Assembly: GCA_963705295.1 (NCBI GenBank)
Contig: OY970065.1
Span: 512,001-576,000, forward strand
Direction: 5' to 3'
Source: Parachlamydiales bacterium
Lineage (GTDB): Bacteria > Chlamydiota > Chlamydiia > Chlamydiales > Rhabdochlamydiaceae
DNA length: 64,000 nt
Notes under the pieces: model-generated
What the model was told of the DNA's origin: nothing
The model's database searches: none
Seen by the model: the letters and a program-made list of their open reading frames with translations, nothing else
Made by a program: the position numbers and the translations under genes
Part shown: positions 31,081 through 40,798 of the stretch, in pieces
How the letters are laid out: every line of letters starts with the position of its first letter
Numbering within the stretch: the first letter of the stretch is position 1

Positions 31081-31623
31081 TTATATACAAGAAAAAGGGA
31101 GAACGATTCCACAAGAATAATCTTTTTGAATAGAAATGGGCATATATTTTAAACGGTCGTTTTTCAAATGCAAACCCCCACCGGGTTGAATATCAAATTG
31201 CACGCTTTTTAAGGAGGCATGGAGTCCCGTTCCGGTTTGTTTCAGGTAAGCTTCTTTGGCAACCCAAAGATCAAAAAAGGCTTTTCTCTGGTCCTTTAGA
31301 AGAGAAAATTGCTCTAGCTCGTTTTCTGTCAGGGCATCTTCTAAAATCTCTTGAAAGTCGAACGATGGGTCGTGGTATTCGATATCGATTCCTATTTCAT
31401 GTTGAAAGGAAAATGCAAAAACCATCAGATCTTTTGAATCCGAAGTGTTGAAATAGAGACCTGGGTAGTGGGGTTTTCCGTAAGGGCCCCGTGTAATTTG
31501 AATGGTGTTTGGATCTTGATTTAAAAGTTTACCCATCAATGCTTTCAACAAAGTCTGCTTGGGTTGTGAGGAGAATGCGACAGCTAAATAAATATCAAGA
31601 TTCGAGAGCTTGACGCAGTCCAT
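31081..31623 (-). CDS. Sfp-type 4'-phosphopantetheinyl transferase
   Basis: GKP, FNTSDS, IGIDIE, FFDLWVAKEAYLK. ATG 31623 with AGGAG RBS overlaps the NRPS 3' end. Confidence 0.9.
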   Translation of the reverse strand: MDCVKLSNLDIYLAVAFSSQPKQTLLKALMGKLLNQDPNTIQITRGPYGKPHYPGLYFNTSDSKDLMVFAFSFQHEIGIDIEYHDPSFDFQEILEDALTENELEQFSLLKDQRKAFFDLWVAKEAYLKQTGTGLHASLKSVQFDIQPGGGLHLKNDRLKYMPISIQKDYSCGIVLPFSCI

Positions 31624-40600: not shown

Positions 40601-40798
40601 CATCTCCACCGACCGGTCCATGCACAGCGCCACCATCTCTCCCACCTCAATCCCCAAGTGCCGCGCCAGCTGATTCGCCCTCTTGTTCAACTCCCCATAC
40701 GTGACCCTCTCCTCCCCAAAAACAATCGCCACCTCCTCCGGCGCCCTCCGCACCTGCTCCTCAAACATCTCATAGATCGTCTTCATTCTCCCTGTCAT
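31595..40798 (-). CDS. Non-ribosomal peptide synthetase A-T-C-A-T-Cy-A(Ox)-T-TE
   Basis: Three A cores (TSGSTG/TSGTTG), three carriers (GGHS, GGHS, GGNS), C HHVIAD, Cy PLTDVQQAY...DGLNMD, SagB-like RKSYRTY...YPSAGGLYP insert, TE GWSFG. Confidence 0.93.
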   Translation of the reverse strand: MTGRMKTIYEMFEEQVRRAPEEVAIVFGEERVTYGELNKRANQLARHLGIEVGEMVALCMDRSVEMVVGLLAVLKAGGVYVRLSPLFPDERLEFMLEDTGAKVLLKHWELGERFRNFKGRVIEVAECFKGEDENLGKMTGVDDLACVIYTSGSTGKPKGVLIERGGMINVFTSVSEILGMRPRDKLLAITTVAFDIAGFELFAPLVTGGQVVLVPREVSRDILELARYMGEIEPTVMSATPATWRGLLESGWEGDRHLTALSSGEKLGDGLAQKLLKKCKGLWNLYGPTETTIWSTVYKVEKGKKVTIGHPLPRTKIYIVDQNLHVVPPGEEGEILIAGIGVARGYLNRPELTAKSFIENPFTKDKRYARVYRTGDLGRLLPDGNIEYLGRRDEQVKIRGFRVELGEIEYALRRNPKIKNSVVIARDGRLIAYLTLKKPQEEVGTIIAALREELGAILPDYMIPNAFVFLEHFPLTPSRKIDKKALPDPEMHYHAEPYHAPKNALEEKLAGMWSEILKVKSVSSTDNFFYLGGHSLLAIKLLARIRDTFQIDLPLRVIFDHPTVKGLSTVLLEKEKEENKPLMPLVPQNRDRLIPLSFAQQRLWFLDQIVPEKSIYNIPFLVRLKEPVNRHAVERSFEAMIQRHETLRTCFKVHNGTPYQQIEDRVKFSIGAKENIRGVFDLSVAPLFRASLKDDLLVIVFHHVIADEWSLEVFAEEFQAFYDHFAHQKILELPELPVQYADYAIWQRAWLEGEVLEKQLAYWKKELGDAPEGINFPFDHPRPAVASYKGKIHHTEIPRKTFDAVKTLAEKKGCTVFMVLLAALHTLFYRYTLQDDIVIGSPIAHRNMKEVERIIGFFVNTIALRSRLMGKNPRFIDFLKEMKETVLQAFAHQDVPFEQLVEHLNVTRDLGRHPIFQVVLALEGMEPFKVEVQDAKFDLTFTLREESLSIEYATDLFVASTIERLAKHYIQILDAIGKNPEIRIEEIELFTPFPVVETKRSEDQTVHALIKTSDKVALVCEKEQITYRELNKKGNQLAHLLLADKLIAICLDRGIDFVVSMLGILKAGSAYVPLDPTYPDERLKFMLEDSGAAVLITHSRYRDKFPNYTGHVIEIDQVKLSKEAKPVKEAKLAYVIYTSGTTGRPKGVLIEHAALCDRIDGCQRLCPLSESDRFLHMFSFSFDGAVLACWWPLAMGATLVIPTQMLEDGLMEKYQINTVFSTPSILQFLFQDFSGNLKTVIAGGEKLSKELAVKIQKHAGALYNFYGPTEATILATGGKVKGGKEPSIGKPILNTTVHILTPSLNAMPVGAIGEIYIGGKDLARGYLNRPDLTQGKFILLHGERVYATGDLGKFAPDGEIYYAGRKDEQVKIRGYRIELGEIETVLLEQPEVQECVVFSQQGRLIGYLVLKEGAHLKKIVDKLHLFLPEYMIPTSLLVVKELPRTPGGKLERPVEISTPLTETEKLLAEICGRLLDIEHVNLNQTFFQIGGHSLLATQLMAMIRKTFQVEVPLRTLFEHPVLRDLARQIDERMEERREIGAQLPALSVDEEHRYEPFPLTDVQQAYLIGRSGLFELSHVSAHSYSEYDYPDLDIPRLEKAWNLLIQRHEALRLIFPNESQQQILKSVPYFSFPLEQDPEKVRKELSSQILPADTWPLFDIRFSKKRMHISLDGLNMDAWSVSILFAEWRKLYKNLKAELPPLHLSFRDYVVYLKSLEDTDLYKRDRKYWIDRIPNFPPAPPLRTRKNPDQAVQKFSRQTKTFKGWKKLQEQIRELKISPAAFLTATLAEVLARWSSSSHFALNLTLFQRLPVHPQINAIMGDFTSLLVLEIDHRGAETFLDRAKRVQKQLWKDLDHGLFGGVAFIRALAHAQKKEGSVLMPIVFTCVLHESQETVTDKGQLVYSITQTPQVWLDCKALEEKGDLIIEWDYLGDLFPPGMIEEMHTAYFNLLETKSFELPPKYQTAIWKVEYHLLHELFYAKATEHPNAPAVFSARGNLTYQELEKIVNQLGHKLRELGAKPNHLVAILMGKGWEQVAACLGILASGAAYVPLDVELPLARLEFLLVQTEVQIILTTTKYLDLIFQLTQDYQVICVDERENESVARLKPVQKLDDLAYVIFTSGSTGLPKGVMIDHKAVVNTILDINDRYKVSENDRVFALSSLHFDLSVYDIFGPLAAGGAIVMPPHESRRDPKVWLEWMAKEKVTLWNSVPMLMQMLLEQEEIPPIPLRLVLLSGDVIPLTLPARIQEAFPKAEIVSLGGATEAAIWSIYYPVNKVDPEWKTIPYGKPLRNQQFYVLNDKLEDCPDWVPGHLYIGGVGLAKGYWKDEAQTQKRFQNGLFNTGDLGAYYPDGNIEFLGREDFQVKIKGYRIELGEIEFQLLQIPMVQQAVVDVYKDVQGQKYLVAYVVFKKLELVQDTGPLAIEEAEKLTFKLEQHGIEKFHRPPDIVLEKHPFDEDHYYVRKSYRTYQDKMISRHEFEKWLAHSFAPLSLKEIQLDDFRALTYEDGRLPKYLYPSAGGLYPVQIYVRHDATYYYHPIKHALYKVSDESTRERELLFIPKKAAIEPAYGILSDNFCQLEIGYMKGLLQHERLPAPDILIYVKTGRIEGLEGGWYTYPLKQISAETPLDDVPGVGEMSSTFHEAAFYIFFTGDPVQAGFYSQRLMEEGIQHKIGLCPIGNLDTYTASFVKADVIHTLVGGRVSREQIGSREVSDPKGAPFFQDYLQKKLEKILPEYMVPTYFFFLDHLPLTSNGKVDRRSLPTPAAEPEKPLEETAHNYMEMVLQSLWEECLKRPVGATDNFFEVGGNSLLMVRLVNLINKKGTLTVADFIKNPTIAGLASLMTSKVLETPSHLLTIQNQGTKTPLFLIHPAGGLALPYLPLARYFPDQPIYGISNPRFATTEDPFSSVEEMAKDYIEKIKTIQPEGPYLIGGWSFGGTVALEMAHQLVSEAQIFLIDTFYEAGGEITPEILDNVLAPYGLEVDSEEGRAIAAEMRQTQKLLSAYEPHIYEGKASLLKAKEGSTDPFNGLKPWVPHLKSYLIDGAHDFLFSDPFIAGVADGLRQALES

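Follow-up and report, generated by a model that had tools for sequence, protein, structure and literature searches.

Background

Oxidases that are built into an adenylation (A) domain are known from nonribosomal peptide synthetases (NRPSs). According to the available sections of PMC8795117, the oxidases of EpoB and IndC are inserted between the A-domain motifs A8 and A9, the larger insert of IndC being a pseudodimer and IndC itself monomeric, and in BmdC Tyr260 is the likely catalytic base, while Arg146, Arg149, Asn236 and Gly294 contact the flavin mononucleotide (FMN). Here we describe an NRPS with such an insertion, encoded in a 64,000-nt stretch of the genome of an environmental chlamydia-like organism, a Parachlamydiales bacterium (contig OY970065.1, positions 512,001 to 576,000; the whole stretch is called the window, and its positions are used throughout unless another contig is named). 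The NRPS consists of A, carrier (T), condensation (C), heterocyclisation (Cy), oxidase (Ox) and thioesterase (TE) domains, and its gene overlaps that of a phosphopantetheinyl transferase (PPTase). Judging from the sequence, we consider it reasonably likely that it makes a free-amine dipeptidyl-thiazole-4-carboxylate, aa1-aa2-Thz.

Chlamydiae live as obligate intracellular bacteria and have reduced genomes. We know of no product of any chlamydial biosynthetic gene cluster (BGC), nor does the literature consulted name one. The clusters themselves are widespread in Chlamydiae according to Dharamshi et al. (2022; PMC9666466), who mention NRPS genes in Simkania. In the parts of this source that were accessible, the antiSMASH counts comprise 12 'NRPS' and 74 'NRPS-like' regions, Rhabdochlamydiaceae included (Data S10A), and none of these is close to a characterised cluster, the top similarity among the NRPS and NRPS-like rows of Data S10B, part 3 of 4, being 0.69. 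A 2026 paper on a Hydra symbiont (PMC13229535) cites widespread chlamydial BGCs as established. NRPSs in chlamydiae are therefore not new, and the rarity implied in a preliminary description of the window was overstated, since such clusters are in print and the thiazole unit was found in six other chlamydial genomes (see below). On the other hand, neither 'thiazol' nor 'heterocycl' occurs in the accessible main text of PMC9666466, which describes no Cy domain followed by an oxidase-containing A domain, Cy-A(Ox), and no architecture like that of the window. The arthropod Rhabdochlamydiaceae paper PMC9723776 has no occurrence of NRPS, polyketide synthase (PKS) or secondary metabolites, and none of the 15 best-ranked literature matches for thiazole-forming NRPSs of Chlamydiota contains the name of this phylum. 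Thus, the thiazole unit in this phylum and the window architecture are undescribed in the literature searched.

The NRPS gene and its domains

The NRPS is encoded on the minus strand by a frame that is free of stops throughout (open reading frame (ORF) listing). Its parts are the following:

31595..40798, minus strand: NRPS gene, 3067 aa, A1-T1-C-A2-T2-Cy-A3(Ox)-T3-TE
39314..40786, minus strand: A1, loading adenylation domain, residues ~5-495, signature DIFSLSLIWK
39074..39301, minus strand: T1, carrier domain, Ser in GGHS at 39194-39205
37814..39031, minus strand: C, condensation domain, Pfam stretch 594-992, HHVIADEW at 38672-38695
36434..37771, minus strand: A2, adenylation domain, signature DGLFIGFILK
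36194..36421, minus strand: T2, carrier domain, Ser in GGHS at 36320-36331
34874..36151, minus strand: Cy, heterocyclisation domain, DGLNMD (DxxxxD) at 35768-35785, residues 1672-1677
33629..34861, minus strand: A3 core, motifs A1-A8, signature DLYNLSLIWK
32654..33511, minus strand: Ox, nitroreductase/SagB-type oxidase between A8 and A9
32489..32653, minus strand: A3, C-terminal part, A9 LPEYMVP at 32585-32605, A10 NGKVDR at 32528-32545
32249..32476, minus strand: T3, carrier domain, Ser in GGNS at 32375-32386
31598..32221, minus strand: TE, thioesterase, GWSFGG at 31988-32005

Translation starts at ATG 40798 or at ATG 40786 (M5), the latter matching the start of P0015, a homolog described below, in the alignment. 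Pfam recognised three AMP-binding stretches (5.5e-248), two Condensation domains (2.2e-127), three PP-binding domains and a Thioesterase domain (5.9e-22), and the NCBIfam model TIGR01733 scored 1205 bits against a cut-off of 317. The motifs A3, A5, A9 and A10 are present in all three A domains; together with the carrier serines, the HHxxxD motif of the condensation domain and the GxSxG motif of the TE they identify a type I modular NRPS. An open frame of 9.2 kb with NRPS core motifs in the proper order is not due to chance. Product-specific NCBIfam models all stayed under their cut-offs among the best 25 of 112 (AusA 1336/2500, SolG 1164/2200, EntF 904/2400, MxcG 887/2300).

The second domain of the condensation family was assigned to the Cy type because of its DGLNMD motif; DxxxxD replaces HHxxxDG, and the module groups with Cy-A modules in a phylogenetic tree. 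The preliminary description had read an uninterrupted A1-T1-C-A2-T2-Cy-A3-T3-TE from the DNA, and this is borne out by the stop-free ORF, the order of the Pfam domains and the located motifs. All motifs quoted there, among them the Cy motif, were recovered no more than 2 nt from where it had placed them; the Cys-type segments of A3 are FDLSVYD (34286-34306), WNSVP (34163-34177), LLSGD (34088-34102) and SLGGATEAAIWSI (33989-34027).

Substrates of the adenylation domains

To derive the ten signature positions, the three A domains were aligned with P0015 and its companion P0019, with the motifs A4, A5 and A10 as anchors. The signature of A3, DLYNLSLIWK, agrees at all ten positions with a Cys signature given in PMC12283262; in the portion available, this signature stands in a list of those that 'catalyzed Ox modified moieties'. 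The earlier expectation that A3 activates Cys is thus backed by a full Cys signature of the published, oxidase-linked kind, and Cys is the predicted substrate. A1 (DIFSLSLIWK) agrees with this Cys signature at 7 of 10 positions and with the Gly signature DILQLGMIWK of the same source at 6 of 10. Its pocket is Cys/Gly-like, and aa1 is likely to have a small side chain. The pocket of A2 (DGLFIGFILK) is lined by hydrophobic residues, so aa2 is probably hydrophobic. In P0015 and P0019 the A3 signature is the same and that of A2 nearly identical (DGLFIGFVVK). The A1 signature differs (DAYG[V/I]GEVAK), which indicates that the first residue varies within the family formed by these two proteins and the window NRPS.

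The embedded oxidase

A8 ends at residue 2376, and the A9 motif LPEYMVP begins at residue 2732. The oxidase occupies the stretch between them, at about 32650-33510, and contains RKSYRTY (33395-33415) and YPSAGGLYP (33233-33259). A SagB/McbC-like oxidase late in A3, which had been placed at about 32640-33570, is hence present at nearly that position. A profile of five chlamydial Ox regions matched BmdC with an E-value of 3.8e-15, followed by the putative nitroreductase 3eo7, CyaGox/SagB-type dehydrogenases and McbC.

The five oxidases share 30-35% identity, and yet 57 alignment columns are invariant, which speaks for a functional flavin site under purifying selection. The invariant positions include RKSxR, PKYxYPSAG.LYP.Q, PxY, IGxCP and HxL.G. 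The Tyr of PxY is present in all five sequences and aligns with Tyr260 of BmdC, the proposed catalytic residue; it is followed by Gly in four of the five, including the window oxidase (IEPAYG). This oxidase clade conserves the RKSxR motif, the block KY...SAGxLYP, the tyrosine of PxY and the Gly in IGxCPxG.

In the alignments, embedded oxidases fall into three grades. Single copies have 318-405 aa from A8 to A10, mostly 334-376. Full tandem duplicates have 507-530 aa and a second RKSYR motif (P0044, P0099). A chlamydial and rotifer group with 444-479 aa has a second copy without the N-terminal third. The window oxidase belongs to the last group, with further pieces of the first copy gone, and measures 375 aa from A8 to A10. 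The alignment thus suggests that it is what remains of a tandem (pseudodimeric) Ox after trimming.

The PPTase gene and the operon

Downstream of the NRPS domains two further features close the locus:

31081..31674, minus strand: Sfp-type 4'-phosphopantetheinyl transferase, 197-aa frame overlapping the 3' end of the NRPS gene
31017..31036, no strand: 8-bp hairpin flanked on either side by T-rich tracts, in the gap between the PPTase gene and the convergent pqq2 gene

In agreement with the earlier claim that the NRPS has its own PPTase, the Pfam model ACPS (PF01648) matched this frame with 1.3e-17 (64.3 bits, cut-off 25). The nearest NCBIfam models, HetI, AusB and AcpT, are of the Sfp type, and all scored under their equivalog cut-offs. 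The most plausible start is ATG 31623, which has AGGAG 7 nt upstream. Since this start overlaps the end of the NRPS gene by 29 nt, the sequence suggests translational coupling between the two genes. The hairpin is likely a bidirectional terminator that closes the NRPS-PPTase operon. The genome harbours three genes of the PPTase family. A promoter scan was uninformative (6 sites against 10.5 expected). Public sequencing runs, RNA included, containing the 9.7-kb stretch were not found, which has no bearing on expression.

Proposed product and alternative explanations

The proposed synthesis of aa1-aa2-Thz would proceed as follows. The PPTase would convert T1-T3 to their holo forms, A1 would load a small amino acid onto T1, and the C domain would couple it to the hydrophobic residue loaded on T2 by A2. 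Since a C-starter or formylation domain is missing, the N-terminus of the product should be free. The Cy domain would condense the dipeptide onto Cys-S-T3 and then cyclodehydrate it to a thiazoline, and the oxidase in A3 would dehydrogenate the T3-bound ring to a thiazole. Finally, the TE would release H2N-aa1-aa2-thiazole-4-carboxylic acid, most simply by hydrolysis.

Several observations weigh against this proposal. The signatures of A1 and A2 had no match in the searchable literature, including the supplement text of PMC12283262. The operon is adjoined by no exporter, regulator or resistance gene, and an MbtH-like gene was not found in the genome. A partner of this kind is needed by some A domains only. 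The other points concern the oxidase. The Pfam model Nitroreductase scored 20.8 bits on residues 2462-2681, under its gathering cut-off of 23.5, and as a single-sequence query against PDB sequences the oxidase gave only a marginal match to BmdC (E 0.1). The hairpin before YYYHP, the segment with a conserved Asn and the C-terminal strand of the first copy are missing. In our reading of the alignment the absent Asn would correspond to the flavin contact Asn236 of BmdC, which seems to have no clear equivalent in the clade; a Glu of the second half-copy lies near its place. An AlphaFold2 model of the region, calculated from the alignment of five sequences, had a mean pLDDT (predicted local distance difference test) of 41 and was unusable. 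Because the oxidase is atypical, sub-threshold and trimmed, it could be a degenerate remnant that lacks pieces present in typical embedded oxidases and in the larger oxidase of P0015, and the same assembly line could then release a thiazoline, or hydrolysed or epimerised forms of it. We regard this as rather unlikely, since the invariant columns in RKSxR, KY...SAGxLYP, the PxY tyrosine and IGxCP argue for a working flavin site. The embedded oxidase is, in our opinion, probably active.

If the thiazole is formed, its use and its release could still differ from our proposal. Small thiazol(in)e peptides are often metallophores, thiazol(in)e carboxylates being typical metal ligands (intermediates of pyochelin and yersiniabactin are discussed in the available part of PMC11934131), and two transporters of the major facilitator superfamily (MFS) are encoded 11-14 kb from the NRPS. 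However, an aryl-acid cap, a salicylate or dihydroxybenzoate ligase, a TonB-dependent receptor and a reductase are all missing among the 39 ORFs scanned of the 55 window ORFs of at least 150 aa, in line with the preliminary description, which had noted no aryl-acid starter or siderophore receptor nearby. Moreover, a single azole with a free amine would be a weak chelator, and the base composition of the MFS genes (31% and 46% GC) is far from that of the NRPS gene (48%). A metallophore instead of a host-directed or antimicrobial compound is therefore quite improbable. As to the release, an iterative TE might oligomerise and cyclise the tripeptidyl unit, with the free N-terminal amine as the nucleophile in the absence of an N-capping domain. 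The product would then be a ring of two or three such units, each with its thiazole, and a cyclised form had indeed been allowed for before. The sequence does not separate hydrolysing from cyclising TEs, and neither a second T domain nor a docking feature typical of iterative systems was seen with Pfam; we think this outcome very improbable. Even less credible is a mere passenger cluster, acquired recently, not expressed and heading for decay. The atypical GC content of the NRPS gene, its position in a rearranged region beside an IS607-like element and its absence from same-genus genomes, described below, would fit such a history. A stop-free frame of 9.2 kb with intact catalytic motifs and a retained, coupled PPTase gene would not. 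We thus favour the linear free-amine peptide with a terminal thiazole carboxylate.

Relatives of the NRPS

We found no ortholog of the NRPS in 60 relatives or in 399 other genomes sampled across the phylum. A query comprising Ox-T-TE detected no ortholog in 128 other genomes of the family (best matches 30-37% identity), and a search with the whole protein in species-representative genomes revealed no close relative. The only colinear full-length homologs are P0015 and P0019 from read-archive assemblies, which have the window architecture and are 52% identical to the window NRPS overall and 54-55% in the C-terminal half. P0015 itself, when used as a query against species-representative genomes, retrieved only generic NRPSs, mostly cyanobacterial, with 34-50% identity.

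Matches at the level of NRPS (E <= 1e-40) are present in 79 of the 400 scored genomes of the phylum, the host genome included. The Cy-A(Ox) unit was detected with 44-52% identity in six other chlamydial genomes (G361, G198, G032, G279, G202 and G146; the unit of G198 is protein P0070). These assembly lines have the same X-T-Cy-A(Ox)-T unit and the same oxidase insertion as the window NRPS. The contexts differ and include A-T-Cy-A(Ox)-T-C-A-T-C-A-T, C-A-T-Cy-A(Ox)-T and, in G146, T-Cy-A(Ox)-T-TE; some are proteins of 5 kaa with extra C-A-T modules, and none has the order A-T-C-A-T-Cy-A(Ox)-T-TE. At five of the eight other chlamydial loci mapped, the NRPS gene has a PPTase homolog next to it.

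A tree of Cy-A modules was calculated with FastTree, a quick method, from 129 rows, namely the BLAST hits with more than 90% query coverage among 120 database proteins and 13 locus translations; midpoint rooting was used for drawing only. The window module groups with P0015 and P0019 (support 100). This group and the modules of the six other chlamydial assembly lines are part of a clade of 15 rows (Shimodaira-Hasegawa-like support 99), of which seven are chlamydial, six unlabelled and two from Adineta rotifers, while two chlamydial rows (L086, L088) are placed outside the clade on long branches.

An oxidase insert of the same reduced-duplicate type occurs in the bdelloid rotifer NRPSs P0047 (Adineta steineri) and P0051 (Adineta vaga, on an 18-Mb contig). 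Along with the position of their Cy-A modules in the tree, this hints that genes may have passed between chlamydia-like bacteria and rotifers. PMC11258130, a paper on rotifer NRPSs, does not mention chlamydiae in its main text.

Host and genomic setting of the cluster

The window is part of a single contig of 2,131,910 bp with a GC content of 43.8%. That the host is a chlamydia, as the preliminary description had assumed, is confirmed by two markers. ParC retrieved 67 loci, by record title mostly from metagenome-assembled genomes of Chlamydiota (Rhabdochlamydiaceae, Simkaniaceae, Parachlamydiales); several loci carry the label 'Verrucomicrobia' or 'uncultured bacterium'. TLC nucleotide transporters (PF03219) have six matches in the genome, three of full length, and none in 14 control genomes. 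The window additionally encodes RING/TPR/ankyrin and OTU proteins.

Several observations point to a horizontal acquisition of the NRPS cluster. Its NRPS gene has a GC content of 48.0% against 43.8% in the genome, which places it in the top 0.3% of 9.2-kb windows. Six same-genus genomes have, within ~1.5-4.5 kb of gpsA, homologs of genes that are 42 kb away in the host genome, and the genes for the NRPS, the PPTase, a hydrolase, a propeller and a PARG-like protein are absent beside gpsA in all six. A seventh (G001) has a different PPTase and a 2041-aa A-T-C-A-T NRPS (33-38% identity) in the same variable neighbourhood, inserted between homologs of the genes that flank the variable region (L168, G001:C21, 9503-16201). 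This insertion suggests that the region is a hot spot for NRPS acquisition. Lastly, orthologs are lacking in the genomes of relatives, phylum and family searched above, and likewise in the 18 genomes of the same genus that were searched, and the only colinear homologs are P0015 and P0019.

Neighbouring genes and other loci

The genes next to the operon were considered as possible members of the cluster. A convergent operon at 26517-31012 encodes an alpha/beta-hydrolase and two paralogous PQQ-like beta-propellers, all with signal peptides. The GC content at third codon positions (GC3) of these genes is 0.30-0.35, compared with 0.51 for the NRPS gene. On the other side, a PARG-like gene (40855-41934), encoding a microbial-type macrodomain protein, is divergent, starts 56 bp from the NRPS start and has 50% GC like the NRPS gene. 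None of the four genes has a homolog beside the eight other chlamydial NRPS loci examined. The PARG-like gene was rejected on this ground, and the hydrolase and propeller genes also because of their signal peptides, their different GC3 and their convergent operon. The cluster is consequently taken as the NRPS and PPTase genes only. The hydrolase has an unusual Cys-rich tail. The PARG-like protein has a Pro/Ser-rich N-terminus and one hydrophobic segment, and the segment 40001-42000, which covers the 5' end of the NRPS gene and the PARG-like gene, shows the most extreme GC skew in the window (-0.37, at 51% GC).

Beyond these genes a low-GC island extends from 42016 to 53209 (31-38% GC against 43.8% in the genome). 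It includes two small hypothetical membrane proteins, and the following features were annotated in this region:

42986-44719: RING/TPR/ankyrin protein, in the low-GC island
45283-47499: insertion sequence (IS) element, IS607-like, 38-44% GC, inside the low-GC island and the rearranged region
47904-48836: OTU-like protease, 43.7% GC, the genome average
49559-51160: aromatic amino-acid lyase or aminomutase of the MIO (4-methylideneimidazole-5-one) type, ASG motif, Ser-Val
51207-52001: S-adenosylmethionine-dependent methyltransferase, in the low-GC island
52004-53209: MFS transporter, in the low-GC island

The IS607-like element consists of a serine recombinase with a MerR-type helix-turn-helix domain, followed by a TnpB-like gene. 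The latter is probably frameshifted, because it is split into two overlapping frames of 267 aa. Histidases have Ser-His where the MIO-type enzyme has Ser-Val. The lyase, the methyltransferase and the MFS transporter may form a separate small pathway. It is unlikely that the lyase and the methyltransferase, 9 kb away, supply precursors to the NRPS, since they have 31-34% GC and are separated from it by effector genes and the IS element.

A second, larger cluster is located elsewhere in the same genome (G000:C1:1908624-1925900; L166 1-19901, continuing into L167). It contains a 3900-aa ORF with ketosynthase (KS), dehydratase (DH) and ketoreductase (KR) domains in the order KS-DH-KR-...-C-A-T-C-A-T-reductase, adjoined by a short-chain dehydrogenase. 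Upstream of it, a protein of at least 1852 aa has KS, DH, KR and acyl carrier protein domains without a Pfam acyltransferase domain, as in trans-acyltransferase systems. The third PPTase-family gene (1949114-1949368) is ~25 kb from this cluster.

Significance

The window NRPS follows standard NRPS logic. It is a compact orphan that lends itself to experiments and has an oxidase of unusual build. The cluster comprises two genes in 9.7 kb with an own PPTase, no apparent need for MbtH or tailoring enzymes and a well-defined third residue, and for these reasons it offers a practical entry point for heterologous expression. A product, once in hand, would reveal which compound a chlamydia releases into its host or vacuole. 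The atypical oxidase is a natural test of how much of the duplicated nitroreductase fold an embedded NRPS oxidase needs. It is tempting to speculate, although we hold this broader picture to be doubtful, that a lineage of thiazole-forming Cy-A(Ox) modules with a partly duplicated, pseudodimer-derived oxidase is centred on Chlamydiota, was shuffled into various assembly lines among obligate intracellular chlamydiae and was passed to bdelloid rotifers. The window version would then make a small free-amine thiazole peptide inside the eukaryotic host cell, which might act on the host or on competing microbes, and this would be the first nonribosomal peptide of a chlamydia that experiments could easily reach.

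Comparison with known systems

EpoB of the epothilone pathway (also EpoP) is a single module that is fed by a PKS, passes its product to a PKS and lacks a TE. Compared by description and not by sequence, it shares with the window module the Cy domain, an A domain with Cys as the known or predicted substrate and an oxidase, in EpoB an FMN enzyme, between A8 and A9 (PMC8795117, sections available). In EpoB the thiazole is made on the carrier protein, as proposed for the window NRPS. The window module, however, is the last of three in a self-contained NRPS that finishes with a TE. The reading of Cy, Cys-specific A and embedded Ox as a thiazole module after the epothilone example, put forward earlier, gains support from the domain order, the A3 signature and the homology and insertion site of the oxidase.

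The bacillamide synthetase BmdB and the stand-alone oxidase BmdC (PDB 7ly4-7ly7) convert an aminoacyl-Cys to an aminoacyl-thiazole on the assembly line, as proposed for the window NRPS. BmdC is the best match of the oxidase clade among solved structures, and the proposed catalytic Tyr is shared. However, according to the same sections of PMC8795117, BmdC acts in trans, has a domain like the RiPP recognition element and dimerises the NRPS, whereas the window oxidase is embedded and partly duplicated. Furthermore, bacillamide is released by condensation with tryptamine, while the window NRPS would use its TE. IndC of indigoidine synthesis has in common with the window NRPS the insertion site between A8 and A9 and an oxidase derived from a tandem duplication. 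In contrast to the window NRPS, it lacks a Cy domain, and the ring that it oxidises comes from glutamine; in the window the duplication has been cut down to approximately the size of a single oxidase.

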